Below are positions 19,543 to 54,800 of a stretch of 64,000 nucleotides of DNA, in pieces. This stretch comes from Nitrospiraceae bacterium (lineage in GTDB: Bacteria; Nitrospirota; Thermodesulfovibrionia; UBA6902), in contig QZIL01000093.1 in NCBI GenBank assembly GCA_003599025.1, forward strand, positions 24,512-88,511, written 5' to 3'. A program made the translations under genes and the position numbers. Every line of letters starts with the position of its first letter. Position 1 is the first letter of the stretch. Under the pieces are notes generated by a model. That model saw only the letters and a program-made list of their open reading frames with translations. It was not told the origin of the DNA and made no database searches.

Positions 19543-19612
19543 GTCATTCCCGCAAGCGAAGCGCGTCGGGAATCCTTCTTGAAAAAGATTCTGGACAAGC
19601 CGGAATGACAGA
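19543..19612 (+). repeat. family-A palindromic interspersed element (GTCATTCCCGC..CGGGAATC..CCGGAATGAC)
   Basis: about 70 nt with terminal and internal inverted repeats; near-identical inverted copy at 54727..54800. Confidence 0.7.
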
Positions 19613-19658
19613 CAAACAGTAATTAGTCGGCTTTATAAACACTAAACAGAGAACAGAC

Positions 19659-21557
19659 ATGTATTTGGAAAAAATAAAAAGCCCGGCAGACATAAAGAAA
19701 CTTTCAATTACTGACCTGAAAGAACTTGCACAGGAATTGAGGGAGATAATCATTCAGACCGTTGCTACCAACGGGGGGCATCTCGCTTCGAATCTCGGAA
19801 CAGTGGACCTGACTATCGCACTTCATTATGTGTTTAATTCCCCGGAGGACAAGATAATCTGGGACGTAGGCCACCAGGCTTATACTCACAAATTACTTAC
19901 CGGCAGATTTGATTTGTTTCCTACTATCAGAAAGTATAAAGGCCTTTCCGGATTTCCGAAAATGACTGAAAGCCCCCATGATTCCTTTGGCACGGGCCAC
20001 AGTTCTACTTCAATATCCGCAGCGCTCGGTATTCTGGAGGGACGGGACCATAACAGGAAAAAATTCAAGGTCATCCCGGTAATAGGTGACGGTGCACTTA
20101 CTGCAGGACTCGCCTTTGAAGGGCTTAACCATGCCGGACATTTAAAGAAGGACATTATTGTCATTCTTAATGATAATGAGATGTCGATTTCTCCCAATGT
20201 TGGCGCACTGTCCGCATATCTTCGGAGATTGATGATGGGGGACCTGTATACAAAATTTAAAAAAGAGACCAAGCTGTTCCTCGAAAGAATCCCCGGTGTA
20301 GGCGAGCCGGTCCTCAAGATTGCCCAGAAGGCCGAGGATACAGTAAAGGGGCTTTTTGTACCGGGCCTGCTTTTTGAAGAACTCGGATTTGAATATGTCG
20401 GACCTGTGGACGGACATAAAATAGATGCCCTGATAGAGACTCTGAACACCTTTAAGGACTTTCCGGGGCCTGTCCTTATTCATACAATTACAAAGAAGGG
20501 TAAGGGATATGAGCCTGCTGAGAAAAACCCCTGGAACTTTCACGGGGTCGGGCCTTTTGATATTGAGACAGGTGAGTCTCAGCCTTCATCCAGAAAATCA
20601 TACAGCGAAATATTCGGCAACTGTCTTACCAGACTCGCTGCAGAAGACAATCGTATAATTGCTATAACCGCAGCAATGACAGAGGGTACAGGCCTTTCTG
20701 AATTCGTAAGGTCCTACCCTAAAAGATTTTACGATGTGGGAATAGCCGAACCTCATGCTGCTACCTTTGCGGCAGGTCTTGCCAGTCAGGGGCTGAAACC
20801 TGTGGTAGCAATTTATTCTACATTTCTCCAGAGGTCATATGATGAGATCATCCATGACATCTGTCTGCAGGACCTGCCGGTCGTTTTTGCCATTGACAGG
20901 GCCGGGATAGTCGGAGATGACGGGCCTACCCATAACGGGACCTTTGACCTTTCCTATCTCAGGCATATACCTAACCTTATCGTCATGGCACCTAAAGATG
21001 GGTATGAACTCAGATGCATGCTTAAGACAGCGTTGTCACTGAATAAACCTGCGGCCATAAGATATCCGAGAGGATCTGTAATCGATAGTAAGGAGGATTC
21101 AGAATTAAAAAGTATCACGTTAGGGACGGCCGAGGTAGCAAGAGAAGGAAAGGACATCCTGATCCTGGCTGTCGGAAATACTGTTGAGCCGGCTATTGCT
21201 GCTTCTGAACTTCTTGCAGGTGCTGATATTGATGCATGCATTGTAAATGCAAGATTTGTTAAACCGCTTGATATCGAACTGATCTCCCGCTATGCAAAAG
21301 AAATCGGACATGTACTCACAGTCGAGGAAAATGCGGTTTCCGGCGGTTTTGGCAGTGCAGTTCTGGAGGAACTCACTGCATATGGGGTATCGGGGCTGAA
21401 CTTCAGGATGCTCGGGCTTCCGGACAGATTTATTGAACATGGCACGCAAAGTCTCCTGAGACAGCAGTTGGGCCTTGATGCAGAAGGTATTGCACGGGAG
21501 GCTTTGGCCCTGGTCGGTAAAAAGCATAATGCCTTGAGCAGCCGTCCAGCCACTTAG
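19659..21557 (+). CDS. dxs: 1-deoxy-D-xylulose-5-phosphate synthase
   Basis: 632 aa; GGHLASNLGTVDLTIALHYVF, the TPP-binding motif (GDGALTAG) and transketolase-like C-terminus. Confidence 0.95.
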   Translation: MYLEKIKSPADIKKLSITDLKELAQELREIIIQTVATNGGHLASNLGTVDLTIALHYVFNSPEDKIIWDVGHQAYTHKLLTGRFDLFPTIRKYKGLSGFPKMTESPHDSFGTGHSSTSISAALGILEGRDHNRKKFKVIPVIGDGALTAGLAFEGLNHAGHLKKDIIVILNDNEMSISPNVGALSAYLRRLMMGDLYTKFKKETKLFLERIPGVGEPVLKIAQKAEDTVKGLFVPGLLFEELGFEYVGPVDGHKIDALIETLNTFKDFPGPVLIHTITKKGKGYEPAEKNPWNFHGVGPFDIETGESQPSSRKSYSEIFGNCLTRLAAEDNRIIAITAAMTEGTGLSEFVRSYPKRFYDVGIAEPHAATFAAGLASQGLKPVVAIYSTFLQRSYDEIIHDICLQDLPVVFAIDRAGIVGDDGPTHNGTFDLSYLRHIPNLIVMAPKDGYELRCMLKTALSLNKPAAIRYPRGSVIDSKEDSELKSITLGTAEVAREGKDILILAVGNTVEPAIAASELLAGADIDACIVNARFVKPLDIELISRYAKEIGHVLTVEENAVSGGFGSAVLEELTAYGVSGLNFRMLGLPDRFIEHGTQSLLRQQLGLDAEGIAREALALVGKKHNALSSRPAT

Positions 21558-21649
21558 AACAAATAATGCAGCCATTGAAAAATAAATTAATTAATTTTCC
21601 AACATCTGCTTTATTTGAAATGCATTTTCTTGGTTGAAATTACTTTTCT

Positions 21650-22396: not shown

Positions 22397-22411
22397 CCGG
22401 GGCATCCGTAA

Positions 22412-22657: not shown

Positions 22658-22795
22658 CCGGTATTACCCGGCCTCCAATCTGCCTATAAAAATAATATAG
22701 TGCTTCTTGGCAAAACATAACATGATATTTATCATATCGGACGACACGTTAATAATTAGATTCCGCTGTGGAAAGTGATTTCCACTTACCTGAAT

Positions 22796-22865
22796 GTCAT
22801 TTCGAACGGAGTGAGAAATCCAAACATGCTGCGAATGCAAGATTTCTCCCGTTGGTCGAAATGAC
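22796..22865. repeat. family-B palindromic element (GTCATTTCGA..GAGAAATC..GATTTCTC..TCGAAATGAC)
   Basis: nested inverted repeats; second copy at 27334..27405. Confidence 0.65.
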
Positions 22866-22950
22866 AATGTTCCCTGAATATTCTTATTTCAGGTTTCCGC
22901 AAGAGTTCTAACATAAGGAGTTGAGAAGGTAAGACGTTATCAAGTCGACT

Positions 22951-27264: not shown

Positions 27265-27333
27265 ATTATATTCCCTCTTTTCTGCTAACTAGTTCCTGTT
27301 GCGGAAACTATAAAATACTTATGTAGCTGGATG

Positions 27334-27405
27334 GTCATTTCGACCAGCGGGAGAAATCTTTCGGTATTGCAACGGGTTAAGATTTCTCGCTTCACTCGAA
27401 ATGAC
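27334..27405. repeat. family-B palindromic element
   Basis: gtcatttcgaccagcgggagaaatc...gatttctcgcttcactcgaaatgac between lptE and leuS. Confidence 0.65.
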
Positions 27406-27470
27406 ATGTTAATATCAGATTATCACTTTCCTCAACAGATACTGACTACTAACTCCTGACTACTTGCTAC

Positions 27471-32518: not shown

Positions 32519-32564
32519 ATGCGGGTGTTTTGCTGTCAGTGTACAGCTATATAAAATTTAATGT

Positions 32565-41487: not shown

Positions 41488-41545
41488 CAATAACGGATCA
41501 TACATATAAGCTTATTGATAGGTAATTAGGATATGTGAGGTTGCC

Positions 41546-41995
41546 ATGAAAAAACTTTTTCTGACATTAACAATAATTCTGTCTATGACCGGCACGGTCT
41601 TTGCCGGCCCTGAAAGAGTAACGCTGATTACAGAGGATGAAGGCGCCATGAAAGATGCCCCCCCAGGACTTTATGACGTGGGGAGGGTTCTTAACACCGG
41701 TCCTGAGATAAAGATTATTTCACCCGAAATTGCAGATGAATATCATCCCCCTGTTGACATTAACATTGTTTTTGAACCGACAGATGATGCGAAAGTCGAC
41801 ATGTCAAAGTTCAAGGTTGAGTATATTAAAATAATGTCTCTTGATATTACAGACAGGTTTTTGCAATACACAACTAAAGATGGGATAAGGATCAAGAATG
41901 CCGACTTCCCGAGAGGCAAACACAAATTGAAGGTCACTATCGGGGATGATCATGGCGGGATAACTGAGGAGATATTTACAGTCAAGCTGCTGTAG
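41546..41995 (+). CDS. secreted hypothetical protein
   Basis: 149 aa with signal peptide (TGTVFA/GPE); no family recognised. Confidence 0.45.
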   Translation: MKKLFLTLTIILSMTGTVFAGPERVTLITEDEGAMKDAPPGLYDVGRVLNTGPEIKIISPEIADEYHPPVDINIVFEPTDDAKVDMSKFKVEYIKIMSLDITDRFLQYTTKDGIRIKNADFPRGKHKLKVTIGDDHGGITEEIFTVKLL

Positions 41996-42191
41996 TTTTT
42001 TAGTGTTCCGGCGGTCTGCGGCGATCAGACAGAAGACTGCTGAAACCAATTGTCATTATTAGAAACTGTCATGCCCGTTCCGTGACAAAGCGCGGAACGG
42101 GTCTCCGGTTATTTAAAGAGCTGCTGCCTGTTCCATAAGTTATGACGCTGAGGACAGGTTTTACCGGAATTATAGAAAAAGGACACGAAGC

Positions 42192-42839
42192 ATGTTCAGA
42201 TTACAGTCTCTTTTTTCATTGCTGGTTTTTCTGATTGCATTGGCAGACGGTGCCTCTGCAGGGTCTGCTTATGACAATGTTTACGCGGAATACCCGAAAG
42301 ATAAATACCTTGTGGGTATAGGCGAGACCGGCAGGACCGGGAATTTCCTGAATGACAAAAGGGTTGCTGAGGTGCTTGCGAGGCTCGAAATTGCCAAGCA
42401 GATAAAGGTCAGGCTCAAAGAAGAAACCGTAGATATAATGTGTGAAGGCGGGGCAGCAAGGCTGTTCAAAGACATGCGCGAATGCAGAAATGAATTTGTC
42501 ATGGTAGTTGAAGTCACTGTCGATGAGTTTCTTTCGGGCTCAAAGATAGTCAGTCATTGGGAACAGGATGGAATTGTATATGCAGTAGCTGTACTGCCGA
42601 AGGCAGAGGCTGTCAAAGAACTTGATGACAGGTCAAAGGAGTCGGCAGACAGGACCAGGGAAAATATTGAAAAGGCCAAAAACGGAGACGACGGGGCTGC
42701 TGGCGAAGCACAAAGGGAATATATGAAAGCAGTGACATATGACAGGGAAAAAGAGATGCTTGACGGAGTCAGAAGCCGTTCATCGGACATGTTTGATGAG
42801 CTTGAGAAGGAGTTGGTGAAGCTGGGGGGTAAGGAATGA
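42192..42839 (+). CDS. LPP20-like secreted protein
   Basis: 215 aa; signal peptide; YLVGIGETG...AEVLARLEIAKQIKVRL core similar to 40721 and 45301 products. Confidence 0.5.
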   Translation: MFRLQSLFSLLVFLIALADGASAGSAYDNVYAEYPKDKYLVGIGETGRTGNFLNDKRVAEVLARLEIAKQIKVRLKEETVDIMCEGGAARLFKDMRECRNEFVMVVEVTVDEFLSGSKIVSHWEQDGIVYAVAVLPKAEAVKELDDRSKESADRTRENIEKAKNGDDGAAGEAQREYMKAVTYDREKEMLDGVRSRSSDMFDELEKELVKLGGKE

Positions 42840-45160
42840 AAACCATAAAGATGGCAATGCTGCTTTTGGTCCTTATTATGCCGGCATATGTTTATTCTGC
42901 CGACAACAAAAAAGATCCCTCTCAGAATGGGGAGAAAACTGACTTCAGGATATTTAAGGGCCATTCAGAGGAAGTTCTCACGATTGCCTTAAGTCCGGAC
43001 GGCCGGATGCTGGCATCGGGTGGTGAAGATGAAATTGTTATTCTCTGGAATGTATCCACCGGAGAAAAGATAAGGACGCTCAAGGGACACTCGGGCCATG
43101 TTACGGCACTGTCCTTCAGTCCTGCCAACCAGACACTGGCTTCTGGAAGCAAGGACAAGAAGATAATTATATGGGATGCAGCTACCGGTGAGAAGATAAA
43201 GGACTTCAGTGACGACAGCTTCGATGCTGTCCTGTCAATTGCCTTCAGTCCTGACGGCAAAAGCCTTGCGGTCGGAAGTGAGGAGGAAACCATTACCTTA
43301 TGGGACCCGGAATCTGGAAAGACAATAAGAACTCTGAAGGGACATTCAGATGAAGTCTGTTCCCTGGCCTTCAGCCCAGACGGAAAATTGCTCGCCTCAG
43401 GCAGCGGTGATAAAACAATTATTATATGGAACCCTGTGACCAGCGAAATCCGCAACACCCTGAAAGGCCACAAAGATACGGTAAACTCTGTGGCGTTCAG
43501 TCCCGATGGCCGGGTGTTGGCCTCTGGTAGTGAGGACAGGACAATCGCCCTCTGGAATATTGCTTCCGGGGAAAAAATAAATATGCTGACTGACAATAAA
43601 GACTCTGTGCAGTCTGTTGCCTTCAGTCCTGATGGAATGCTTCTCGTCTCAGGCAATGAGGACGAAACCGTTACCATATGGGACGCGCAGACCGGAGGTA
43701 AACTAAAAATTCTTTCAGGGCATAAGGACATGATTACATCAGTTATATTCAGTCTGGATGGAAGCTCCCTTATATCAGCCGGTGAGGACAGAAATATAAT
43801 TGTCTGGAATACCGGCTACAGGACCTCATTCGCAGGTCCGCCGGCATCTGTCCCCTCACCCGCTGCTCCCCTGTCGGCAACAAAGGCCCCGGCAAATAAA
43901 ATCCCGGAAGTCAAGGTCCCGACTGTTAAAACCCCGGCATTTGCCCCTAATCTCCCTGTTCTGGCTGCGCCTGAACTGATGTACGATGTCAGGGTGGATG
44001 ATGCGAATGGCAACGGGATTTTCGAGGGAGGAGAAACTATCAAAGTGACAGTGAATATTGAAAACAGGGGCAAGGGTGCTGCCGAGGCTGTTGAGATATT
44101 GGTGTCCGGCAATAATTCACTGATATACTGCCTTGGAAACAGCAGGGTTGTGGGCGATGTTGGCCCCGGCAGTAAAAAAGATGTAATCCTGCAATGCACT
44201 CTGCCCACTCGCCTTAAGGCTGAAACAGCCCACATTTCTCTGGAACTGGCAGAGCAGAGGGGTTATTCACCCGCGGAAATAAAGTCCTTTACTGTTGCCA
44301 TGAAACCAGCTGATATAATAAAGACCGAGCACATAATTTCCCGGCATATAGATGTGGATGTGGTCCCTGCAAAAAACAGTAATTTCAGGAGGGACAATTC
44401 ATATGCTCTTGTAATAGGGATCAGCAATTATCGTGACAAGGAAATTCCTCCGGTCAAATACGCAAAATCAGACGCGGAGAAATTTGCAAAGTACCTCGAA
44501 AATATCGGAGGGGTCCCGGCAAAGAACATCAAGCTGGTCACTGACGAGATGGTGACCAAGGGTGACATTGAAGCATATATCGAAGACTGGCTGCCGAGAA
44601 GGATAAAAAAAGATTCCGAGGTCTTTGTTTATTATGCCGGACACGGTACTCCTGACCCCCGTACCGGTGAGGCATATATTGTACCATATGACGGAAATCC
44701 TGATTACAAATCAAAGCTCTATCCCCTTAAAAGGATGTATGCCTCTTTAAACAAGCTGCCGTCAGAACAGGTTGTTGTTATGCTGGATTCCTGTTTCTCC
44801 GGAGGAGGGGAGAGGGGTGTAATGAGTCAGGGGACCAGGCCTGTAAGTCTGTCTGTTGAGAACCCTATCCTGGCCGGAGGGAAGGTTTTTGTACTTGCTT
44901 CAGCTTCAGGGACGCAGATAAGTTCAGATTTTGATAAGGTAAAACACGGATTATTTACTTATTATCTTCTTAAAGGGATGAAGGGCGATGCGGACGAAGA
45001 CATGAACGATAAAATAGAGCTTCAGGAACTCTATAAGTATGTAAAGCATAACGTCTCTGAGACCGCATCATCTGAACTGAACAGAGAACAGATGCCTGTG
45101 CTTCTGCCTGATATGGAGCAGCACAGACCTGCAGCGATCGAAATAACAAGGGTGAAGTAG
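42836..45160 (+). CDS. secreted WD40-repeat / CARDB-like / caspase (peptidase C14) fusion protein
   Basis: 774 aa; signal peptide; seven WD40 blades (LASGS.D..I.IWD); CARDB-like middle; C-terminal caspase fold with His (YYAGHG) and Cys (LDSCFSGG) dyad. Confidence 0.8.
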   Translation: MKTIKMAMLLLVLIMPAYVYSADNKKDPSQNGEKTDFRIFKGHSEEVLTIALSPDGRMLASGGEDEIVILWNVSTGEKIRTLKGHSGHVTALSFSPANQTLASGSKDKKIIIWDAATGEKIKDFSDDSFDAVLSIAFSPDGKSLAVGSEEETITLWDPESGKTIRTLKGHSDEVCSLAFSPDGKLLASGSGDKTIIIWNPVTSEIRNTLKGHKDTVNSVAFSPDGRVLASGSEDRTIALWNIASGEKINMLTDNKDSVQSVAFSPDGMLLVSGNEDETVTIWDAQTGGKLKILSGHKDMITSVIFSLDGSSLISAGEDRNIIVWNTGYRTSFAGPPASVPSPAAPLSATKAPANKIPEVKVPTVKTPAFAPNLPVLAAPELMYDVRVDDANGNGIFEGGETIKVTVNIENRGKGAAEAVEILVSGNNSLIYCLGNSRVVGDVGPGSKKDVILQCTLPTRLKAETAHISLELAEQRGYSPAEIKSFTVAMKPADIIKTEHIISRHIDVDVVPAKNSNFRRDNSYALVIGISNYRDKEIPPVKYAKSDAEKFAKYLENIGGVPAKNIKLVTDEMVTKGDIEAYIEDWLPRRIKKDSEVFVYYAGHGTPDPRTGEAYIVPYDGNPDYKSKLYPLKRMYASLNKLPSEQVVVMLDSCFSGGGERGVMSQGTRPVSLSVENPILAGGKVFVLASASGTQISSDFDKVKHGLFTYYLLKGMKGDADEDMNDKIELQELYKYVKHNVSETASSELNREQMPVLLPDMEQHRPAAIEITRVK

Positions 45161-45194
45161 AGGTACTAAGACATAACTTAACAAAGCCTCATGC

Positions 45195-45253
45195 CCGTCA
45201 TTCCGGGCTTGACCCGGTCGGATCGACTCGCCCCGACCTTCGCGGGAATGACA
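45195..45253. repeat. family-A element variant
   Basis: cGTCATTCCGGG...GGTCGGatcgactcgcCCCGACC...CGCGGGAATGAC. Confidence 0.6.
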
Positions 45254-45300
45254 AACAAGGTGGCTTTCAATATGTAGTTGTTAGTAAGGGGTAGGTTCAC

Positions 45301-45837
45301 ATGAAGTTATTTCTGACATCGATTTTTCTTTTTTCATTCTTGACAGCCTGCCAGTCAGCCTATGTCAAACCATCAGGCCCGCCGCCTGCCTGGGTGGTCA
45401 GGACGCCTGATATGAAAGGCATGATCTGTGCTGTCGGGGCAAGCGGTCCCACGTATTTCAGGGATGACGCGCAGTTGAATGCTGCTGAAAACGCGAGGGC
45501 GGAGCTCGCAAGGACGATAAGCGTCAGCATTAAGAACATAATGGTCGAGATGACTTCTGACAAAGGCAGCTATATTGATGACGCGACCGTAAGTGAGGTC
45601 TCGTCTTGGGCCACCTCGGCAGTTGTGGAAAATTCCAGCATAATGGAGTACTGGTATGACGCGGACGGTCAGGTGTCGAAAAAGGATTTCACCTATGCCC
45701 TTGGCTGCATGCCGCGCAAGTTTGACAGGAAGTCTCTTGAGGCGCACATGTCTGATTCACATTCTGCCGGCCAGGGGAGTCATAATGACATCAGCCGCGC
45801 GGCAGATGAGATACTCAGGCAGCTTGAGGGGGAGTGA
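45301..45837 (+). CDS. LPP20/FlgP-like lipoprotein
   Basis: 178 aa; lipobox LTAC; PPAWVVRTPD...AVGASG...AAENARAELARTISVSI. Confidence 0.55.
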   Translation: MKLFLTSIFLFSFLTACQSAYVKPSGPPPAWVVRTPDMKGMICAVGASGPTYFRDDAQLNAAENARAELARTISVSIKNIMVEMTSDKGSYIDDATVSEVSSWATSAVVENSSIMEYWYDADGQVSKKDFTYALGCMPRKFDRKSLEAHMSDSHSAGQGSHNDISRAADEILRQLEGE

Positions 45838-45925
45838 ATGCTTATGTTGGTTCAATCATTCTGATTGAACTATAAAGCTAAATTATATGGAGCATCTCCG
45901 AAAAAGTGCTAATAAGCAGATGGTT

Positions 45926-45998
45926 GTCATTCCCGCGCAGGCGGGAATCCAGAGCCTTTGAAAGGACCAGATTCCGGTTTAAGGACTGCCGGAATGAC
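45926..45998. repeat. family-A element
   Basis: GTCATTCCCGCgcagGCGGGAATCC...gccGGAATGACag; overlaps the 5' leader of the FGE-like gene. Confidence 0.7.
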
Positions 45999-46007
45999 AG
46001 GAAGGGC

Positions 46008-47054
46008 ATGAAAAATATAATCCTGGCCATCATTATCTCTATGGTATTATCCTCTTATGCATTCGCTGCCGAGGTCAAGAACGTTGTCTCCTCCCAGTCA
46101 GGCAACCGCGTGCTCTTTGAATATGACCTGACCGGAGAAGAGAAAGAGGCTGACGTTAATATCACGATCACCGTCAACGGCACGGCCTATAGCGCAGAAA
46201 AGCTCTACCTTGAGGGTGATTATGGGAAGGTCAGCTTAGGCAAGGGTAGGAAGATATACTGGAACGTGCTCCAGGACTTTCCGAGGGGACTTAATACGAC
46301 GTTTGAGTGGGAGATAACTGAGGGAGGCAAAGACTTCAAAGATCCGTTGACAGGAATGGAGTTTGTCTTTGTTAAAGGTGGGTGTTTTCAGATGGGGGAT
46401 ACGTTTGGCGATGGAGATGCGGATGCGAAGCCGGTACATGAGGTGTGCGTGGATGATTTTTATCTGGGGAAATATGAGGTGACTCAGAGGCAATGGAGAG
46501 AGGTTATGGGGAACAATCCTTCGTATTTCAAGAACTGTGGCGATGACTGCCCTGTGGAACAGGTGAGTTGGAACGATGTGCAGGAGTTCATTAATAAGCT
46601 GAATGAAAAGATAACCCCCCATAGTCCCCCCTTAGATAAGGGGGGAAGAAAAGGGGGGTACAGACTTCCTACAGAGGCGGAGTGGGAGTATGCCGTACGG
46701 AGCTGTGGGAAGAAGGAGGAGTACTCAGGTAGTGACAGTATTGACAGTGTGGCATGGTATGACAGTAATTCGGGAAGAAAGACACATCCTGTAGGGCAGA
46801 GAAGTCCTAATGGTCTCGGCATTTATGACATGAGCGGCAATGTATGGGAATGGGTACAGGACTGGTACGGGGAGAAATATTACGGTGAAAGTCCCAAGTA
46901 CAATCCTAATGGACCGAACAGTGGAACCGCTCGCGTGCTGCGCGGCGGGTCTTGGAGCAATATTACGAGGTATGCTCTCACATCCAATCGCGTCAGGTAC
47001 CATCCCGACTACAGATTCAACAACGTCGGGTACCGCCTTCTTTGGACTAAGTAG
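46008..47054 (+). CDS. secreted FGE-sulfatase (SUMF1/EgtB/PvdO) fold protein, apparently lacking the catalytic Cys pair
   Basis: signal peptide; N-terminal beta domain; FGE core (YRLPTEAEWEYA...NGLGIYDMSGNVWEW...RVLRGGSW...VGYRL). Confidence 0.8.
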   Translation: MKNIILAIIISMVLSSYAFAAEVKNVVSSQSGNRVLFEYDLTGEEKEADVNITITVNGTAYSAEKLYLEGDYGKVSLGKGRKIYWNVLQDFPRGLNTTFEWEITEGGKDFKDPLTGMEFVFVKGGCFQMGDTFGDGDADAKPVHEVCVDDFYLGKYEVTQRQWREVMGNNPSYFKNCGDDCPVEQVSWNDVQEFINKLNEKITPHSPPLDKGGRKGGYRLPTEAEWEYAVRSCGKKEEYSGSDSIDSVAWYDSNSGRKTHPVGQRSPNGLGIYDMSGNVWEWVQDWYGEKYYGESPKYNPNGPNSGTARVLRGGSWSNITRYALTSNRVRYHPDYRFNNVGYRLLWTK

Positions 47055-47276
47055 TTTATTAGTCTTTAGACTTTTTGCTTTTTTACACTTTGTTTTTTTG
47101 GGGTACAGGGGCATTGCCCCTGTAGAAAATAAATATGGAGGTAGGATAGGAGCACACTCCTCAGTCCCTTCTCGGAATCGAGTCAATACGACTTTATAGA
47201 GAAGAGATACAGTGAAACAACTTGAAATATGAAAAGTACATAAGTAATCTAATAAAAAATCATTAAATCGTTTATT

Positions 47277-47618
47277 ATGAAGAAGACAATAAAACCGCCT
47301 CTAAGAAAGTCTGTGCTGAACACCATATTAAAACGTCTGGTGGATAACCTTGACGTTGTCAAGATAATCCTATTTGGCTCCTATGCTTCAGGCAAGCCGA
47401 CAAAGGACAGCGACCTGGACCTTCTCATCATTCTGAATACCAAAGAAAAAGGGCTGAAACGCTATGCGATGGTCAGTGAGCTGCTTGAGCCGAGAAAAAT
47501 ACCGATGGACATCATTGTAAAGACGCCTGAAGAGATGAAGAGCAGGGCCAGGATGTTTGACCCATTTTTGAGAACGGTTCAGAAAACAGGGAAGATCCTC
47601 TATGAAAAACCAGCCTGA
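47277..47618 (+). CDS. nucleotidyltransferase (MNT-type antitoxin)
   Basis: 113 aa; LFGSYASGKPTKDSDLDLLIIL Pol-beta NTase motif. Confidence 0.8.
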   Translation: MKKTIKPPLRKSVLNTILKRLVDNLDVVKIILFGSYASGKPTKDSDLDLLIILNTKEKGLKRYAMVSELLEPRKIPMDIIVKTPEEMKSRARMFDPFLRTVQKTGKILYEKPA

Positions 47619-47988
47619 TGTCCTTGAATGGATATTGAAAGCAGAACAGGATTATGAGACTGCTGAAACAATGGCCCGCAGAAGGAAGAATCCTGTGCCT
47701 GATGTGGTCGGTTTCCACAGCCAGCAATGCATTGAAAAATATTTAAAGGCCTATCTCGTTTTGAAAAAGCTCGATTTTCACAAGACGCACGACCTGCTTG
47801 AACTCCTTGAAATAGCTCTCGCAAAAGATCCGCTCCTCGAAGGATACAGGGCCGACCTGCGACTGTTAAATCCATTCTCTGTTCAATTCCGTTATCCCGG
47901 TGAAAGCGCGACACTGGAAGAGTCAAAAACGGCATTGAAGGCCATGCGCAAGGTGCGGATGTTTATTAGAGAAAAGTTTAATCTGTAA
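47602..47988 (+). CDS. HEPN domain protein (toxin partner of MNT)
   Basis: 128 aa; overlaps MNT gene by 17 nt; HEPN fold with conserved ...FRYPG.. region. Confidence 0.75.
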   Translation: MKNQPDVLEWILKAEQDYETAETMARRRKNPVPDVVGFHSQQCIEKYLKAYLVLKKLDFHKTHDLLELLEIALAKDPLLEGYRADLRLLNPFSVQFRYPGESATLEESKTALKAMRKVRMFIREKFNL

Positions 47989-48005
47989 AGTCACAGGGAT
48001 GGGGC

Positions 48006-49397
48006 ATGTTTAAAAAATTATCTGCCGTTACATTAGCAATTATCCTTTCAGCCTCAATGGCTTTTGCCGAGAAAGGCTCTCTTAAGATCGGCATCCTTCC
48101 CGCGCCCCCAAACATTTCAGCGAGCGTGAAATTTACCGAGCCGTCAGGCAACAACATCCTCGACGCGGAGGAGACAGGCACGCTGACCATCATTATAAGC
48201 AATTCCGGGAAGGGGGACGCCTTTGACGTCACGGCTGAGCTAAAGGCGGACAAAAAGACCAGAGGCTTTACCTATAACAATACCGTATCTTTTGGCACGA
48301 TACCTGCCGGTAAGCAGTCATCGATGGACATTGAACTAAGGGCCGGGGAAGACATCCCCACCGATAATATAGCTTTCTCGATAACCGTAAAGGAGGCAAA
48401 CGGCTTTGACGCGGACCCGCTTAAGGTGGCGTTCAGGACAAAGTCCTTTGAGCCTCCAAGTCTCATTATCGCTGACATCGGCATAGACGACCAGAACGGC
48501 AATTCATCTGTCGAGCAGATGGAGATTGTGGTTGAGGGCGTAGACGCGCCGAAGGGAGAGATAAGGGTAGCAAAAGGTCTCAGCGTGGACATTGAACAGG
48601 GCCTGCCGGTCACAAAGACACAGAACAGGGACGCCTTTGCGGTGGTCATGGGCAACTCGGAGTACAAATACGCGAAGAACGTCGACTTTGCGGTAAATGA
48701 CGCTCAGATGGTAAAACGCTATTTGACCGAAGTCCTTGGCTTCAGGGAGGGCAATATCTTCATACTTGCCAACGCGACAAAAGGGGACCTTGAGCTCTAC
48801 TTCGGGACCAAAGACAATTTCAAAGGCAAACTCTTTAACCAGGTAAAGCCGGGCAGGTCGGACATTTTTATCTATTATTCAGGGCATGGCGCCCCGGGCC
48901 TGAAAGACAGGAAAGGCTACATCGTCCCTGTCGAGGCAGACCCGCAATATATCGAACTGAGCGGCTACCCGCTGGATGTCTTCTACAGCAACCTCTCGAA
49001 GCTTCCTGCAAAGTCCGTGACGGTAGTGACGGACGCGTGCTTTTCAGGCGCAGACATTTATGACAGCATCTCACCGATAGTCCTTGAGATAGACAACCCG
49101 GTCATAAACCTGAATAACGGAATCGTGCTTTCAAGTTCGACAGGAACTCAGGTCTCGACATGGTACAATGAGAAGAAGCACGGGATGTTCACGTACTTCT
49201 TTTTGAAAGCAATACACGACAGGAACGCGGATTATGATGGGAACAGGGAGCTTACATTTGATGAAATTTACCGGTATATTTCGGACAGGTCCGACGGCGT
49301 TCCCTATTACGCAAGAAGCATACATAATGTGGAGCAGACGCCTGTCATTCAGGGAAAGTATCAGGGCAGGGTGTTGGTGACGTATGAGGAGAAATGA
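48006..49397 (+). CDS. secreted caspase family protein (peptidase C14) with N-terminal CARDB-like domains
   Basis: 463 aa; signal peptide; His (IYYSGHG) and Cys (VTDACFSG) catalytic dyad. Confidence 0.8.
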   Translation: MFKKLSAVTLAIILSASMAFAEKGSLKIGILPAPPNISASVKFTEPSGNNILDAEETGTLTIIISNSGKGDAFDVTAELKADKKTRGFTYNNTVSFGTIPAGKQSSMDIELRAGEDIPTDNIAFSITVKEANGFDADPLKVAFRTKSFEPPSLIIADIGIDDQNGNSSVEQMEIVVEGVDAPKGEIRVAKGLSVDIEQGLPVTKTQNRDAFAVVMGNSEYKYAKNVDFAVNDAQMVKRYLTEVLGFREGNIFILANATKGDLELYFGTKDNFKGKLFNQVKPGRSDIFIYYSGHGAPGLKDRKGYIVPVEADPQYIELSGYPLDVFYSNLSKLPAKSVTVVTDACFSGADIYDSISPIVLEIDNPVINLNNGIVLSSSTGTQVSTWYNEKKHGMFTYFFLKAIHDRNADYDGNRELTFDEIYRYISDRSDGVPYYARSIHNVEQTPVIQGKYQGRVLVTYEEK

Positions 49398-49496
49398 AAA
49401 TAAACACACCCCTCTATCCCTTCTTTTTAGAGGGGATGAATTGGAATGGCCCAAAAAATGAAAACAGTGTCCGTCAAAATATTTAAACACATAAAT

Positions 49497-49528
49497 ACCT
49501 GGATTCCGGATCAAGTCCGGAATGACGC
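49497..49528. repeat. family-A element, partial (3' module)
   Basis: ggattccggatcaagtccggaatgacgcc. Confidence 0.5.
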
Positions 49529-49592
49529 CATTAAACTGAAGCATTGATTGTTTATTATTAGAATAATGAATTAACGATATTATGGAGGGCAT

Positions 49593-50930
49593 ATGAAAAA
49601 AATATTTCTGGTATCGGCCATATTATTCATTTTTACCTCGTCAGCCTTTGCCGAGTTCCCTGCTGTAAAGGTATACGAGAAGACGGCAAAGAATGTTGTG
49701 CTGATAATCGCCAAAAGCGAAGACACCAGCAGTATGATAGGCGCGGGATCCATTATTTCAGGCACTGGACTGGTCTCTACAAACGCACATGTAGTTGTTG
49801 ACAAGTCTACCTCAAAACCATATTCAAAGATCAGGGTATATCTTAAACCTGATAAGGTGACCGGGAAGTTCAGGAAGGACCTTGTCCATAGCCATAAGGC
49901 TGAAATAGTAGCATATGACATCGACCTGGACCTGGCCATTCTGAAAGCTGAAGAAATCCCGTCCGGGACAGGGACCATAGAACTTGCAAACCCGGATGAG
50001 ATAAAAGTCGGCGAAGAGGCAGTGGCTATCGGCCACCCTGAGCAGGGAGGCCTCTGGACCCTCACATACGGAAGAATAAGCGGAGAAATAGAAGACCAGA
50101 ACAGCATAAAGGGTAAAGACGTATTTCAGACAGACGCGAGCGTCAACCGCGGCAATTCCGGCGGCCCTCTCCTCGATAAAAGAGGGTACATGATAGGCAT
50201 AAACTCAAACATGGCGCGTCTGGGGGCAGGTGATATTCCGATAACAGGTGTTAATTTTGCTGTCAAGGCCTCGGTGCTGAAAAGCTGGCTTCAGAAGCAG
50301 GGGATTACACTTGCTTATGGAAAAGCGGACCTGTACAAAGAAGAACGGGTGAAGCCCGCAGGAGCAGAACTTGAGATGGAGAAAAAATCTGAACAACCGG
50401 AAGTACCAAGGGCAGAACCCTCTGTTGAGAAAGCAGAGCCTGTTATAGAGAAACCGGAACCGTCTGTTGAAAAGACTGAGCCGTCGGTAGAAAAAGCAGA
50501 ACCAGTCGCTGAGAAAGCGGAACCATCTGTTGAAAAGACTGAGCCGTCGGTAGAAAAAGCAGAACCAGTCGCTGAGAAAGCGGAACCATCTGTTGAAAAG
50601 ACTGAGCCATCAGTAGAAAAAGCCGAACCTGTCGTTGAGAAGGCGGAACCATCTGTTGAAAAGGCGGAAGCCCCTGTCGAGAAGGCGAAACCTGTAATAA
50701 GGCAGGCTGAACCACCTGTCAGGAAATCACATACTGTTGTTGAAAAAGCGGAACCCCGTGCTGAACAGAAAGACATGAAAGACGGGGACGGAGAGAAAAC
50801 GCCGGAGACTGAACAGACTGAAAAATACCAGCCTCATCGTAAGGCCTACAGCTATGACTCATTGTTGAAGGCAGCTGAAGAAGATCTTGAAGACATGATG
50901 GAGGAGATGAGGGGAAAGATCAGAAGGTGA
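49593..50930 (+). CDS. secreted trypsin-like serine protease with C-terminal EK/P-rich tandem-repeat linker
   Basis: signal peptide; TNAHVV (His), DLAIL (Asp), GNSGGPL (Ser) triad; C-terminal repeats (EKAEPSVEKTEPSVEKAEPVA)n. Confidence 0.7.
   Translation: MKKIFLVSAILFIFTSSAFAEFPAVKVYEKTAKNVVLIIAKSEDTSSMIGAGSIISGTGLVSTNAHVVVDKSTSKPYSKIRVYLKPDKVTGKFRKDLVHSHKAEIVAYDIDLDLAILKAEEIPSGTGTIELANPDEIKVGEEAVAIGHPEQGGLWTLTYGRISGEIEDQNSIKGKDVFQTDASVNRGNSGGPLLDKRGYMIGINSNMARLGAGDIPITGVNFAVKASVLKSWLQKQGITLAYGKADLYKEERVKPAGAELEMEKKSEQPEVPRAEPSVEKAEPVIEKPEPSVEKTEPSVEKAEPVAEKAEPSVEKTEPSVEKAEPVAEKAEPSVEKTEPSVEKAEPVVEKAEPSVEKAEAPVEKAKPVIRQAEPPVRKSHTVVEKAEPRAEQKDMKDGDGEKTPETEQTEKYQPHRKAYSYDSLLKAAEEDLEDMMEEMRGKIRR
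50448..50700 (+). repeat. in-frame 63-bp coding tandem repeat (about 3.5 units)
   Basis: the unit gagaaagcggaaccatctgttgaaaagactgagccgtcggtagaaaaagcagaaccagtcgct is repeated nearly perfectly inside the protease gene. Confidence 0.75.
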
Positions 50931-51817
50931 TGAAGATAGAGAGCATAAAAATAATCAAATGCCTGCTTTCATTTTTTATTGTTACATATGCTGTGGCGGT
51001 ATATTCTTCAAAGGCGCTTAGAGCTGAGGACACGGCCCCGCTTGTTCCGGACAATGATAACCTTAAGATAGTAGAAGCTGTTGGAGAAATTCTGCTTGGT
51101 GATGACACCACCCCTGCACAGGGCAGGGCAATGGCCCGTAATAACGCGAGGAGAAATGCTCTTGAACAGGCAGTAGGGGTAAAGGTCCACAGCTCGACAG
51201 TTTTATACAATAGCAGCCTTATAAGCGACCTTGTTGTAACAGCCACCAAGGGGCTGATAGTTGAAGAACAAATAATTGATGACGGGCCGGTCATAAAAGG
51301 AGACCAGATATATCATATTTGCAAGCTCAGGGCATATGTAAAGCCTGTCAATATAGAAAAGAGAGGGAACTTCAGGGTCCTTAAAGCTGAAGTCCTGAGG
51401 GCCGGGTCGGACAGAGGTCTTAAAAACCCTGTATTTCAGGACAATGATGAAATACAGGTGATAGTAAGTGTTAATGAAGCTTCACATATAAATATTTTCA
51501 GCGTGAGCCAGGACGGAATGGTTTCGCAGCTTTATCCGAATAAATTTTTTAAATCAGAGCAGCTGGCTGCCGACAAGACCATGATATTCCCGGATGATGC
51601 CCAGCGGGCACTTGGACTGAGACTCCGTGTAAGGACCCCGAAAAAACTGAGCTCGGCACTTGAATCGGTGCTCGTGGTAGCTTCAAAGGAAATGATCGAG
51701 TTGCATCCTGCAGACGGGATGAATGAGCTTATGCTTACGGACGTTCTGAAGAGTCTTTCTGGAATCGATCCGTCATTATGGGCTGATATGACAGTCGGGT
51801 ATGAGGTGAGGAAGTAG
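50927..51817 (+). CDS. LPP20-like plus DUF4384 domain protein
   Basis: 296 aa; signal peptide; N-terminal LPP20-like core (AVGEIL..AQGRAMARNNARRNALEQAVGVKV); C-terminal DUF4384-like (EIQVIVSVNEASHINIFSVSQDGMVSQLYPNKFF). Confidence 0.55.
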   Translation: MMKIESIKIIKCLLSFFIVTYAVAVYSSKALRAEDTAPLVPDNDNLKIVEAVGEILLGDDTTPAQGRAMARNNARRNALEQAVGVKVHSSTVLYNSSLISDLVVTATKGLIVEEQIIDDGPVIKGDQIYHICKLRAYVKPVNIEKRGNFRVLKAEVLRAGSDRGLKNPVFQDNDEIQVIVSVNEASHINIFSVSQDGMVSQLYPNKFFKSEQLAADKTMIFPDDAQRALGLRLRVRTPKKLSSALESVLVVASKEMIELHPADGMNELMLTDVLKSLSGIDPSLWADMTVGYEVRK

Positions 51818-51835
51818 CGGGTCAATTTTACCTTA

Positions 51836-52055
51836 ATGTTGCATAAAGCAGGCAAGCGGCCTTGCTGTAAAACCTTTACAATGCGATGGTAAATTGGGAT
51901 TAAACTTTGGCAGCAGGTCTTAATGCTAAGCGAAGTTCAGAATAATATACGTTATGCTTTTATGAATCTTGCTGAGGTATCGCAGGTAAAGCTTTTCCGT
52001 CAAGCCCGCTCACCTTATACGAGTAATTTAATGCAACTGGAAAGTTTATATATGA
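51836..52055 (+). repeat. conserved ~225-nt noncoding element, copy 2
   Basis: shares blocks with copy 1: taatgtt.cataaa.caggcaagcggcc, aaacctttacaatgcgat, gcaggtaaagcttttcc.tcaag.ccgct, taatgcaactg. Confidence 0.5.
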
Positions 52056-52066
52056 AGTGAGGTGAT

Positions 52067-52285
52067 ATGTCAGCAGTGAAATGTACATCTAAACTCATAA
52101 TCGGCCTTTTGATTGGTGCGATGCTCGGACTCTGGATCGGCGTCAATATCGGAAGGGAACGCCCCCTGTTCAGCAATCCCTTCAGGAAGGAAAGCGTATA
52201 TGAAAAATTCAGGAAAGCGGGCAGGGGATTAGGTGACGCTATAAAGGAAAGCGCTGATGAATTGCACGATAAATTGAAAGAATGA
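52067..52285 (+). CDS. small membrane protein, hypothetical
   Basis: 72 aa; one TM helix (LIIGLLIGAMLGLWIGVNI); downstream of the conserved noncoding element. Confidence 0.3.
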   Translation: MSAVKCTSKLIIGLLIGAMLGLWIGVNIGRERPLFSNPFRKESVYEKFRKAGRGLGDAIKESADELHDKLKE

Positions 52286-52374
52286 CGTGTACATGAATCA
52301 GGATAGACATAATTGTATTTATTAAGACGGTCATAAGTAAAGCGGCATAGCTTGACTTAAAGTACCTACTGTTG

Positions 52375-52443
52375 GCAGTCTGTTGAGCGGGAATCCGGAC
52401 AGCTAAAGAACTGGATGCCAGATTAAGAACTTCGGGCATGACG
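52375..52443. repeat. family-A element, 5'-truncated
   Basis: ...ttgaGCGGGAATCCggacagctaaagaactggat...ttcgGGCATGACg; similar to the 41412 copy. Confidence 0.55.
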
Positions 52444-52576
52444 CTAATTTATTTATCTTTACTTTTGACTTCATTAGTATATGCACTTTAAATCTTTCTG
52501 CGCTTTGATGTAAAATTAACGTCGGCTTAATTATTGGTTGAGCAATAAATATCATCTGACAGGAAACGATATATAA

Positions 52577-53497
52577 ATGATAAACGCAGGTGTTATCGGA
52601 ACAGGATCAATCGGGATGCATCATGCCAGGATTTATTCCGGCCTGGAAGGGGTGCATCTTGCCGGAATATTTGATGCAGATGCTGCACGGGCGCAGGAAA
52701 TTGCGGCGAAGTTTAACTGTAAGGTGTTCAGCAGTTATCAGGAGCTTATAGACTCTGTTGATGCTGTCAGCATTGCGGTCCCCACTACTTTGCATTATGA
52801 AATAGCTATGGCCTGTCTGAAAAATAACAGGCACATTCTGGTTGAAAAACCGGTCACCACTACACTGGATGAGGCTGACAGACTAATTGAGGAGGCAGAC
52901 AGCAGAAATCTGACATTCCAGGTCGGTCATCTGGAACGGTTCAATGCCGGGGTCTCCATGATAAGCGCCATGGTGAACAAGCCGAAATTCATCGAATCCC
53001 AGCGTCTTTCACCATTTCTGGGCAGGGGGACGGATGTTGATGTTACCCTTGACTTAATGATACATGACATAGATATAATACTGAGCCTGGTTGATTCGGA
53101 GATTGCCGATATCCGTGCAACAGGGGCAAGGGTGCTTACAGGAAATATAGACATTGCACATGCATGGATAGAGTTTGAAAACGGCTGCATTGCTGAAGCA
53201 GTGTCAAGCCGGATAGCAGAGGACAAAAAAAGAGAGCTCAAGGTCTTCCAGCATAATGCTTACCTGAATCTGGACTACCAGAAGCAGGAAGTGTCGAGTT
53301 ATATAAAACAAAACGGAAACGTGGAAAAGGAGACAAGGAACCCCGAGGTAAAAGAACCGTTAAAAGAGCAGCTGGTCTCTTTTATCGAATGTATCAGGAA
53401 CTCTACTGAGCCGCTGGTCTCAGGCAGGGAAGGGAAAGAGGCTCTGAAAGTGGTACTGAAAATATCAGGGCTGGTCAACCGGGGGTTTGCAAGCTAA
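52577..53497 (+). CDS. Gfo/Idh/MocA family sugar-nucleotide dehydrogenase
   Basis: 306 aa; MINAGVIGTGSIGMHHA Rossmann fold; paired with a DegT aminotransferase. Confidence 0.8.
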   Translation: MINAGVIGTGSIGMHHARIYSGLEGVHLAGIFDADAARAQEIAAKFNCKVFSSYQELIDSVDAVSIAVPTTLHYEIAMACLKNNRHILVEKPVTTTLDEADRLIEEADSRNLTFQVGHLERFNAGVSMISAMVNKPKFIESQRLSPFLGRGTDVDVTLDLMIHDIDIILSLVDSEIADIRATGARVLTGNIDIAHAWIEFENGCIAEAVSSRIAEDKKRELKVFQHNAYLNLDYQKQEVSSYIKQNGNVEKETRNPEVKEPLKEQLVSFIECIRNSTEPLVSGREGKEALKVVLKISGLVNRGFAS

Positions 53498-54632
53498 GAA
53501 AAAAGATATGCCAAAAATAACAGAAAACATAAAGACAATACCCATGCTTGATCTCAAGGCACAACATGAACCTCTCAATGAGGAAATTAAGACCGCTGTA
53601 AGAGAGATACTCGACAGCAGCCGCTTTATACTGGGTCCTAATGTGTCTTCATTTGAACAGGAAGTTGCTGCTTATCATAATGTAGCAGGCGCAGTCGGCC
53701 TTGGATCAGGCACAGATGCCCTCTACCTTGCTCTAAGGGCTCTTGATATTAAAGAAGGCGATGAGGTTATTACAACACCGTTTACTTTTTTTGCTACTGC
53801 TGAGGCGATAACCTATGTAGGTGCGACCCCGGTTTTTGTTGATATAGACCGGCAGACCCTGAATATCGACCCTTTAAAAATAGAAGAGAAAATTACTTCA
53901 AAAACAAAGGCCATCATTGTTGTACATCTCTTTGGTCAGCCTGCAGAGATGGATGAAATTATGTCCATAGCCGGCAAACACGGGCTGAAAGTCATTGAAG
54001 ATTCTGCACAGGCCTTCGGGGCAAAGTATAAGGGCAGGCCCGTAGCAGGTATCGGTGATGCGGGATGCTTCAGCTTTTACCCGAGCAAGAATCTGGGGGC
54101 TTACGGTGACGGCGGTATGCTGATAACTAATAATCCCGAAATATCCGAAAAGGTCAAACTGTTAAGAAATCACGGTACAACGGGCCCCTATCAGCACAGC
54201 TTTATCGGGTACAACAGCAGGCTTGATGAAATACAGGCAGCTATACTGAGAATAAAATTTAAACACATAGATACTTATAACAGTAAAAGGCGTGATATTG
54301 CCGCGCTCTACACCTCGTTGATCGGTAATGCCGTTGCATGTCCGGTAGAAAAACAGGACAGGGTGCATGTTTACCACCAGTATACATTCAGGACCCCTGT
54401 AAGGGCAGCAGTGGAAAAGGCCCTGCACGACAACCATATATCAGCGGTTGTGTACTACCCCATTCCACTCCATTTGCAGGTGGCCTTTAACTATCTCGGT
54501 TACAAACCTGGTGATCTGCCGGAAGCAGAGGCAGCAGCCGGGGAAGTGCTCTCAATACCCATCTACCCGGAGCTTGAACCGGAAGACGTAAAGATGATTG
54601 CAGGGGTCATTCTTAAGGCTCTGCAAAAATAG
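53487..54632 (+). CDS. DegT/DnrJ/EryC1/StrS family aminotransferase
   Basis: 381 aa; PLP-dependent fold (VHLFGQPAEMDEI...FSFYPSKNLGAYGDGG); start ambiguous (TTG 53487 or ATG 53508). Confidence 0.85.
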   Translation: MQAKKKDMPKITENIKTIPMLDLKAQHEPLNEEIKTAVREILDSSRFILGPNVSSFEQEVAAYHNVAGAVGLGSGTDALYLALRALDIKEGDEVITTPFTFFATAEAITYVGATPVFVDIDRQTLNIDPLKIEEKITSKTKAIIVVHLFGQPAEMDEIMSIAGKHGLKVIEDSAQAFGAKYKGRPVAGIGDAGCFSFYPSKNLGAYGDGGMLITNNPEISEKVKLLRNHGTTGPYQHSFIGYNSRLDEIQAAILRIKFKHIDTYNSKRRDIAALYTSLIGNAVACPVEKQDRVHVYHQYTFRTPVRAAVEKALHDNHISAVVYYPIPLHLQVAFNYLGYKPGDLPEAEAAAGEVLSIPIYPELEPEDVKMIAGVILKALQK

Positions 54633-54726
54633 CCGGAAAAATTTCTGTGATAATCTGCGTCCATCTGTGAATGAAATATTTCTAAAACCTATCTCAAAAT
54701 CAAAAACAGAACATTATTGAATAGCT

Positions 54727-54800
54727 TGTCATTCCGGCTTGTCCGGAATCTTTCTTTGTTTTCAGTAAGATTCCCGACGCGCTTCGCTTGCGGGAATGAC
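54727..54800 (-). repeat. family-A element (inverted copy of the 19543 element)
   Basis: reverse complement of 19543..19612 matches 54727..54800 with only a few substitutions. Confidence 0.7.

Follow-up and report, generated by a model that had tools for sequence, protein, structure and literature searches.

The SsnA protein of Neisseria, a single-domain GIY-YIG protein of 94 amino acids, binds the hairpin of the Neisseria Transformation Sequence (NTS, CGTCATTCCCGCGMAVGCGGGAATCYRG, which includes the dRS3 repeat ATTCCC-N8-GGGAAT) only as single-stranded DNA and in one orientation. It nicks a few nucleotides 5' of the GTCAT head and shows no RNA binding, and its cleavage limits the integration of transforming DNA in Neisseria (PMC11893778, Nat Commun 2025). 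The same study gives a degenerate Ssn-related motif (SRM), HGTCWYN(0-2)YYVSBRHN(0-5)WNVSBRGN(0-2)RNCYNB, reports that ssn genes typically lie between copies of the repeats and demonstrates binding and cleavage for the homologues of Neisseria and Wolbachia. Here we describe GTCAT-headed hairpin repeats in a 64-kb stretch of contig QZIL01000093.1 from a Nitrospiraceae bacterium (hereafter the window) and propose that they are probably a new example, in Nitrospirota, of this Ssn/SRM system described in 2025.

Two further systems are comparable in form. In Neisseria, inverted pairs of dRS3 around short intergenic spacers make up the Neisseria intergenic mosaic elements (NIMEs), which are enriched by variable gene blocks. 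NIME spacers (RS elements) are typically 50-150 bp long, in families of their own, and dRS3 is also the integration site of filamentous prophages via an IS110/Piv-like recombinase. The repetitive extragenic palindromic (REP) sequences and REPINs of Pseudomonas and Enterobacteria are short intergenic palindromes arranged as inverted doublets; their partner is one small nuclease-type gene flanked by repeats, the HuH Y1 transposase RAYT, recognition is thought to occur on single-stranded DNA, and inheritance is vertical with turnover (PMC8266576, PMC8049555).

Hairpin units at ten intergenic sites

The basic unit is one hairpin, 5'-GTC-AT[N]CC..loop..GG[N']AT-C, with an asymmetric conserved head and tail. 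In a doublet there is one unit per strand, with the GTCAT heads pointing outward, the ATC(C) tails inward and 3-35 nt between them, giving the layout GTC-AT[N]CC..loop..GG[N']AT-CC, spacer, GG-AT[N]CC..loop..GG[N']AT-GAC. The initial annotation had described ten sites belonging to two families of palindromic elements, A and B. Elements are present at all ten of its positions and both families are real repeats, but the family A element of 'about 70 nt' is a convergent doublet of two hairpin units, and the two families share one architecture with different stems (ATTCC/GGAAT in A, ATTTC/GAAAT in B).

The window holds 15 units at these 10 sites, far above chance. Six sites are convergent doublets (A1, A3, A5, A8, B1 and B2), which account for 12 of the 15 units; three carry solo units (36773-36800, 49499-49528 and 52411-52444), two of which adjoin decayed left halves (36665-36690 and 52382-52396), and one is an odd variant. 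The sites are listed below with bit scores from a single-unit covariance model built on 32 units from the window and five related genomes.

A1, 19543-19609: convergent doublet in the ispA-dxs spacer; units 19541-19577 (+) and 19584-19611 (-); 31.6 and 31.5 bits.
B1, 22796-22865: convergent family B doublet in the spacer between convergent tlyA/ftsJ-like and rseC genes; units 22794-22823 (+) and 22838-22867 (-), of the form GTCATTTCGA-N7-GAGAAATC; 32.9 and 31.4 bits.
B2, 27334-27405: family B doublet in the leuS-lptE spacer, with inverse orientation to B1; units 27332-27361 (+) and 27378-27407 (-); 28.2 and 29.7 bits.
A2, 36665-36800: degenerate left unit 36665-36690, an 82-nt spacer with a C/G-run palindrome, and an intact right unit 36773-36800 (-) with the exact 23-mer GTCATTCCGGCTTGTCCGGAATC at 36776-36798, right after lpxI; 31.6 bits.
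A3, 41412-41484: convergent doublet; units 41410-41444 (+) and 41453-41486 (-); 32.7 and 26.9 bits.
A4, 45195-45252: aberrant variant in which only the outer termini GTCATTCC/GGAATGAC are kept and the inner halves are replaced by two small nested hairpins; 10-11 bits.
A5, 45926-45998: convergent doublet; units 45924-45952 (+) and 45967-46000 (-); 34.9 and 28.8 bits.
A6, 49499-49528 (-): solo unit with an 8-bp stem between caspase-like and trypsin-like genes; 31.8 bits.
A7, 52382-52444: 5'-truncated left remnant 52382-52396 (GTTGAGCGGGAATCC) and intact right unit 52411-52444 (-), upstream of a gnnA-like gene; 27.7 bits.
A8, 54728-54800: convergent doublet between convergent genes; units 54726-54753 (+) and 54766-54802 (-); 34.2 and 32.0 bits.

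The covariance model finds exactly 15 window units at 26.9 bits or above, and the next match (14.1 bits) corresponds to a seed read on its reverse strand. The model regains its own seeds by construction; the informative part is that it finds no further copies in the window. A search with the family A terminus GTCATTCCCGC, allowing up to one mismatch, gives 10 matches against 0.89 expected, a number reached by none of 100 shuffles. The 10-mer terminus of family B is not significant when taken alone (9 matches against 4.65 expected); both full family B copies are real imperfect palindromes of 26-27 nt, mutually inverted. All 10 sites fall within the 14.8% of the window outside likely genes (P ~5e-9 under random placement), in line with the intergenic concentration proposed by the initial annotation.

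The copies at 19543 and 54727 (A1 and A8), previously described as near-identical and inverted, indeed belong to one subfamily in opposite orientation, with 90% identity over 42 nt and 96% over 27 nt. The left unit of A8 contains the exact 23-mer (54728-54750), which A1 carries with one mismatch, and units of both doublets hold GCGAAGC in the loop.

Two observations adjoin this census. A8 is nested in a 17-bp inverted repeat (54685-54701 / 54819-54835, AGAACCTATCTCAAAAT / ATTTTGAGATAGGTTCT) that is kept around the orthologous element in metagenome contig L202 (L-numbers designate contigs or loci of relatives or metagenomes), and the right arm of this repeat has a 9-bp hairpin of its own at the end of the convergent SLT/LysM gene. 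An isolated intergenic hairpin on the minus strand at 12520-12557 (GTCATGTCCCCT..AGGGGACAT) has a 9-bp stem and a GTCAT head without the ATC tail, and is unscored by the model.

Stems are kept by compensatory change

Across the 32 aligned units the head GTC-A-T is invariant and 86.7% of stem cells pair. The stem covariation score is 0.282, against 0.083 +/- 0.018 after shuffling (0 of 500 shuffles reach it), and 3' partners slid out of register score at most 0.117; the score is partly circular, units having been picked for at least five perfect pairs, with only pairs 6-8 free of that bias. Swaps occur at stem positions 3 (T-A, G-C, A-T), 6 and 8, and pairs 6 and 8, which lie outside the selection, still swap between CG, GC and AU. 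Compensated stems occur in the right units of A3 (ATACC..GGTAT) and A7 (ATGCC..GGCAT); the terminus at the other end of each element remains ATTCC.

As single-stranded DNA, units with stems of 7-8 bp fold at -5.7 to -8.9 kcal/mol (z -2.9 to -5.1); the left unit of A1 folds at -8.3 kcal/mol, the left unit of A5 at -8.9 kcal/mol (z -4.4) and A6 at -7.6 kcal/mol (z -3.5). We also considered the long palindrome formed by a whole doublet as the selected structure and rejected it, because the compensatory changes maintain the stems of the local hairpins at the cost of the long-range pairs (41453-41486, 52411-52444).

The doublet geometry extends to metagenomes. Among 213 model hits at 100 metagenome loci, neighbour pairs within 120 nt are convergent in 72 cases, divergent in 10 and tandem in 3, and 68% of the units sit in convergent doublets.

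Likeness to NTS, dRS3 and REPIN repeats

The left unit of A5 (45925-45952, TGTCATTCCCGCGCAGGCGGGAATCCAG) agrees with the NTS in 27 of 28 positions, and within it, at 45929-45948, lies an exact dRS3 (ATTCCC-N8-GGGAAT). The published SRM pattern has 3 matches in the window against 0.27 expected from 100 shuffles, and the units at 41411-41444 (left unit of A3) and 45925-45952 fit it. As in NTS/SRM repeats, the window units have a GTCAT head, an ATTCC..GGAAT hairpin and an ATC(C)AG tail, and they are dense (15 units in 64 kb) and clustered around particular genes. They differ in that most have other loops or stems (ATTCCGG, ATACC, ATGCC), that convergent doublets with 3-35-nt spacers dominate, and that there is no ssn gene in the window. 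The host also differs: it belongs to the Thermodesulfovibrionia of the Nitrospirota, a phylum unnamed in the main text of PMC11893778, and the system is predicted here from sequence.

The likeness to dRS3 and NIMEs lies in the inverted pairs around short intergenic spacers and in the enrichment by variable gene blocks. Here, the spacers are only 3-35 nt and are not RS families, and other stems occur (ATTCCGG, ATACC, ATGCC, ATTTC); no IS110/Piv-like recombinase gene was seen in the window. REPINs share the short intergenic palindromes in inverted doublets, the small nuclease-type gene flanked by repeats and the vertical inheritance with turnover. However, the REPIN partner is a HuH Y1 transposase and the REP head is GTAG, whereas the partner gene here encodes a GIY-YIG protein and the head is GTCAT, and for Ssn no strand-transfer chemistry is known, so that mobilisation is unproven.

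Hairpins bracket small GIY-YIG genes

A metagenome scan with the exact 23-mer GTCATTCCGGCTTGTCCGGAATC returned at least 120 loci (534 kb, 135 copies). Of the 120 loci listed, 4 have nucleotide-level homology to the window, which suggests that many of the loci derive from relatives. Many of those listed hold the same partner unit as A1 and A8, with unrelated flanks. The NTS-type motif is itself very widespread among the matches listed in an IMG/VR scan.

Six of the 120 loci encode a GIY-YIG protein of 94-113 amino acids directly beside the hairpin, and Pfam PF01541 matched all four such proteins tested (E 1e-6 to 1e-12). Four cases are complete (L251, L312, L314 and L316), and in each of them two convergent hairpins bracket the gene within ~50 nt; clustering of open reading frames (ORFs) among the loci listed identified GIY-YIG as the only recurrent gene family 0-51 nt from the hairpin. 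The ORF runs into the right unit, which encodes ..IPDKPE, and ends at the TGA of GGAATGAC. At L314 the unit lies between recA and recX, and the protein, like SsnA, has 94 amino acids, with Y8/Y18/E65 spaced like Y6/Y17/E64 of SsnA. Three NTS-type IMG/VR loci have the same bracketing of a GIY-YIG gene. As in the NTS/SRM system, a single-domain GIY-YIG gene in related contigs has an identical hairpin on either side.

Among 600 relatives retrieved in a homologue search is P0065, which NCBI names 'GIY-YIG nuclease family protein [Nitrospirota bacterium]'. Copies of the same 23-mer bracket the P0065 gene within a block of 441 nt (GGTTCTTCCGGGAAC...CCTGAAGAACC). Four groundwater contigs carry this block at ~99% identity, and its left flank takes at least three different forms among them:

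441-nt cassette, L356 4916-5355, L357 216-656, L358 and L359: hairpin, 105-aa GIY-YIG gene, hairpin.

The outer ends of the cassette are inverted (GGTTCTTC.../...GAAGAACC). Judging from these sequences, it looks like a multicopy and possibly mobile ssn unit, Nitrospirota by NCBI naming.

Family B hairpins

We examined 62 copies of GTCATTTCGA-N7-GAGAAATC, with N7 unconstrained, from the window and the IMG/VR scan. The N7 resolves into x1 x2 [3-nt loop] y2 y1, where x1-y1 is Watson-Crick in 95% of the 62 copies (CG 32, GC 20, AT 7) and x2-y2 in 82%, and the loop is GAA, GCA or GGA in 36. The units read GA-x1C-[GNA]-Gy1-GA and their closing pairs covary. From these pairing and loop counts, the predicted family B unit is a hairpin of 5 bp, tandem G·A, 2 bp and a GNA triloop.

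A GNA triloop with tandem G·A is the architecture of very stable DNA mini-hairpins, on which Hirao et al. reportedly worked with d(GCGAAGC). In d(GCGAAGC)-type mini-hairpins a GNA triloop is closed by a sheared G·A pair. They are recognised as isolated biophysical motifs and in some replication origins; we know of no dispersed genomic repeat family with them as its core.

Family B has the head, tail and doublet geometry of family A, and by this analogy it may have a place in the Ssn system. A hunt for its partner by IMG/VR scan, tblastn, profile and ORF clustering found only phage structural genes common to homologous contigs.

Turnover among relatives and clustering around a 16-kb block

The DXS protein of the host is 92% identical to that of a groundwater 'Nitrospirae bacterium' metagenome-assembled genome (L121; nucleotide identity to the window ~81-83%) and 60-87% identical to those of other Thermodesulfovibrionia. 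In L121 the ispA stop lies 9 nt from the dxs start; the window has 115 nt more, containing A1. This spacer is also empty in L123 and L127, and L128 carries in it a doublet of another subfamily in the orientation opposite to A1. Further contents are a GC hairpin in L122 and a C5/G5 palindrome in L262. L202 retains A8 at the orthologous site, with 82% identity across 160 nt that include the flanks, and L126, L128, L130, L135 and L138 have similar doublets at other loci.

In L130 the ispA-dxs spacer (~6700-6745) holds a perfect GTAG-headed palindrome, GTAGGGGCGTATTGCAATACGCCCCTAC, with the look of a classical REP. As this palindrome fills the spacer that A1 occupies in the window, several unrelated palindrome families use the site in different lineages.

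No target-site duplication was found at the ten sites or in the comparison of filled and empty ispA-dxs spacers. Two candidates, AATTAG repeated near A1 and AACCTAT repeated near A8, were rejected, since neither abuts the element. There are no tRNAs in the window and therefore no integration-site signal.

The clustering in and around an accessory island noted by the initial annotation holds: units cluster in and around a block at 36.6-52.5 kb, with A2 at its left edge and A7 at its right edge. The lipid A cluster bamA-skp-lpxD-fabZ-lpxA-lpxI / gnnA-gnnB is split by this block of ~16 kb (36600-52500), whose products are a zf-HC2 anti-sigma-like protein, a TPR protein, three LPP20 lipoproteins, WD40 and FGE-sulfatase proteins, an NTase/HEPN pair, a caspase (C14), a trypsin-like protein and a DUF4384 protein.

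The longest FGE-sulfatase ORF has a GTG start at 45906, and its part overlapping A5 (45906-46007) translates the hairpins as ..LSFPRRRESR..RFRFKDCRNDRKG..; translation probably begins at the ATG of 46008, with the signal peptide MKNIILAII...

Other repeats in the window

A conserved noncoding element of ~230 nt is present in two copies (32558-32788 and 51833-52042; 81% identical pairwise), upstream of skp/ompH and of the gnnA-like oxidoreductase, with complementary ends AGGCAAGCGG.. / ..CCGCTTGCCT and no Rfam match at E<=1. Copy 1 has a 21-nt insert (~32588-32608) that copy 2 lacks. The initial annotation had placed a family A fragment here, at about 32596. This assignment is not supported: the insert shares with the A4 interior only the CGGAATC heptamer and one 16-mer (32597-32612 = 45217-45232), and the covariance model does not score it as a unit.

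A nested C6/G6 palindrome at 46611-46659 (AACCCCCC..TCCCCCC..GGGGGGA..GGGGGGT) lies in frame in the FGE-sulfatase-domain ORF, encoding ..ITPHSPPLDKGGRKGG.., and has an 86% similar copy in the relative L130 (2717-2765). The A2 spacer (~36700-36735), the ispA-dxs spacer of L262 and the spacers of some metagenome doublets (L311, L317) hold similar C5/G5 palindromes. Together, the C/G-run palindromes give the impression of a third dispersed family. The trypsin-like peptidase ORF (49593-50930) contains a 21-nt (7-aa) periodic repeat in ~11 or more copies at 50408-50764. A tandem heptamer, AGTGAAY x4, lies at 57853-57880 in the spacer after a fabG-like gene, and the same heptamer repeat occurs at a different locus in L133 (~14587-14615), beside lptE.

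Alternative explanations

The initial annotation called the elements REP/MITE-like. The REP-like part stands in so far as they are interspersed intergenic palindromes, arranged in REPIN-like inverted doublets, whose presence differs between relatives. On this view a RAYT gene elsewhere in the genome, coding for TnpA_REP (a Y1 transposase of IS200/IS605 type), would mobilise them as classical REPs or REPINs, and the GTAG-headed palindrome in the L130 ispA-dxs spacer indicates that REP-type elements exist in the clade. Yet the head is GTCAT in 32 of 32 aligned units and not GT[AG]G, no Y1_Tnp or any other transposase domain occurs in any main ORF of the window, and the 534 kb around the 135 listed copies contain no RAYT-like cluster, GIY-YIG being the only specifically adjacent family. 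We consider this explanation improbable, and the suggested association with an IS200/IS605-type element finds no support in these results. The MITE part fares no better. Miniature inverted-repeat transposable elements (MITEs), non-autonomous derivatives of insertion sequences with a DDE transposase, would have terminal inverted repeats, here GTCATTCC/GGAATGAC, and a length of ~70 nt, inverted termini, multiple intergenic copies and variable presence between relatives fit that description. But a target-site duplication is lacking both at the ten sites and in the filled-versus-empty comparison, solo half-units are frequent (3 of 15 here, about one third in the metagenome loci), no transposase was found in the window or near the listed copies, and the supposed terminal repeats covary with internal partners as local hairpins rather than with each other. 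A MITE origin is thus very improbable.

The repeats could instead act in RNA, as intercistronic stem-loops (terminators, attenuators or mRNA stabilisers) whose spread is incidental. Every site is downstream of at least one gene end, a T-rich tract usually follows the 23-mer in metagenome copies, and the left unit of A8 followed by CTTTCTTTGT was flagged as terminator-like. This is, however, the only such unit among 15, terminator-like sites are not enriched in the region (22 against 17.9 +/- 4.5), and no Rfam family matches, either at the gathering threshold over the whole window or at E<=1 over 19400-55000; the attenuator role suggested by the initial annotation finds little support. Moreover, doublets show symmetry and are found facing either way with respect to transcription, a terminator needs neither the asymmetric GTCAT head nor the ATC tail, and GNA triloops of the GCGAAGC type with tandem G·A are hallmarks of DNA mini-hairpins. 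SsnA, for its part, does not bind RNA (PMC11893778). A primary role in RNA is therefore unlikely, although secondary exaptation is plausible, as for REPs, and the left unit of A8 is a possible case. A different possibility is that the repeats are relic or orphan Ssn-type hairpins, received by descent or acquisition at some past time and with no active partner in the genome, serving as recombination substrates or being neutral DNA. Consistent with this, there is no ssn gene within the 64 kb, several copies are degenerate or truncated (36665-36690, 52382-52396, 45195-45252, 19584-19611), and 19% of genomes with more than 200 SRMs have no detectable Ssn homologue (PMC11893778). Against it stand the many intact units with perfect stems of 7-8 bp, the compensatory changes that keep stems paired, and the conservation of the exact 23-mer across genomes whose genes are only ~69% identical (L128). 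In addition, the Nitrospirota ssn cassette with the same hairpin is multicopy, and the ~99% identity of its copies implies recent activity. We regard a purely relic state as quite unlikely.

Proposed mechanism

Considering how the units are built and covary, their excess over chance, their restriction to intergenic sites, the presence/absence differences and the association with GIY-YIG genes, we think it likely that the repeats are Ssn-related hairpin repeats, of the class of the Neisseria NTS/dRS3 and the published SRM motifs, that function as follows. An Ssn homologue encoded outside the 64-kb window would recognise the hairpins in single-stranded DNA, which may arise during replication, DNA uptake or cruciform extrusion. 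A convergent doublet would present one cleavable unit on each strand, and therefore either strand could be recognised. The doublet geometry is that of the hairpin-ssn-hairpin cassettes minus the gene, and doublets may be gene-less miniatures of such cassettes, as REPINs are to RAYTs. The nuclease would presumably spread or maintain them, and their accumulation around the 36.6-52.5 kb block may reflect recombination or insertion activity there. For the organism, candidate roles are the control of incoming single-stranded DNA or, around the lpx-splitting block, local recombination.

Several results weigh against this reading. No Ssn or GIY-YIG ORF was found in the window by regular expression, tblastn or a 7-sequence profile over six frames (best E 0.63), a negative that relies on tblastn and the profile, and tblastn found no GIY-YIG gene in 1.2 Mb of the relatives' dxs-flanking DNA. 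The SRM pattern as published fits just 2 of the 15 units; the other 13 differ in loop length or stem, and still have the head, the stem logic and the tail. Family B units fail the pattern as well, and no Ssn-like gene lies in the 356 kb around 58 IMG/VR copies of family B. The covariation is partly circular, as stated above. The palindromic folding implied by the initial annotation is borne out locally for the units with 7-8-bp stems, but the local hairpins of family B and of three variant A units are marginal by nearest-neighbour energies, and whole doublets can fold as one long imperfect hairpin that is the minimum-energy fold. Most Ssn-bearing contigs are without taxonomic assignment, NCBIfam has no specific model for Ssn proteins, and the PDB has no solved structure with a sequence match to them. 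Finally, repeat spread by Ssn is itself only a hypothesis in the published work (PMC11893778).

A more far-reaching scheme can be put forward tentatively, by analogy with REPINs and RAYTs: the doublets might be the non-autonomous GIY-YIG counterpart of REPINs, the 441-nt cassette the autonomous mobile form, driven by a single-strand GIY-YIG nuclease, and family B a second hairpin class serviced by another nuclease. We consider this scheme possible but doubtful.

Implications

The hairpin units have practical consequences for annotation and assembly. They produce spurious N-terminal ORF extensions, such as the GTG-start ORF at 45906 (SFPRRRESR), and they break metagenome assemblies, contig L356 terminating exactly at the cassette edge. 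SRM counts elsewhere may be underestimates, because the published pattern captures so few of the units here.

If our interpretation is correct, the Ssn/SRM system would reach beyond Neisseria and other Pseudomonadati, from which it was mainly described, into uncultured Nitrospirota (Thermodesulfovibrionia) of groundwater and sediment. The published work leaves open whether repeats are mobilised by their own Ssn nucleases (PMC11893778), and the relation between doublets and cassettes, together with the multicopy 441-nt ssn cassette, provides material for addressing this question.

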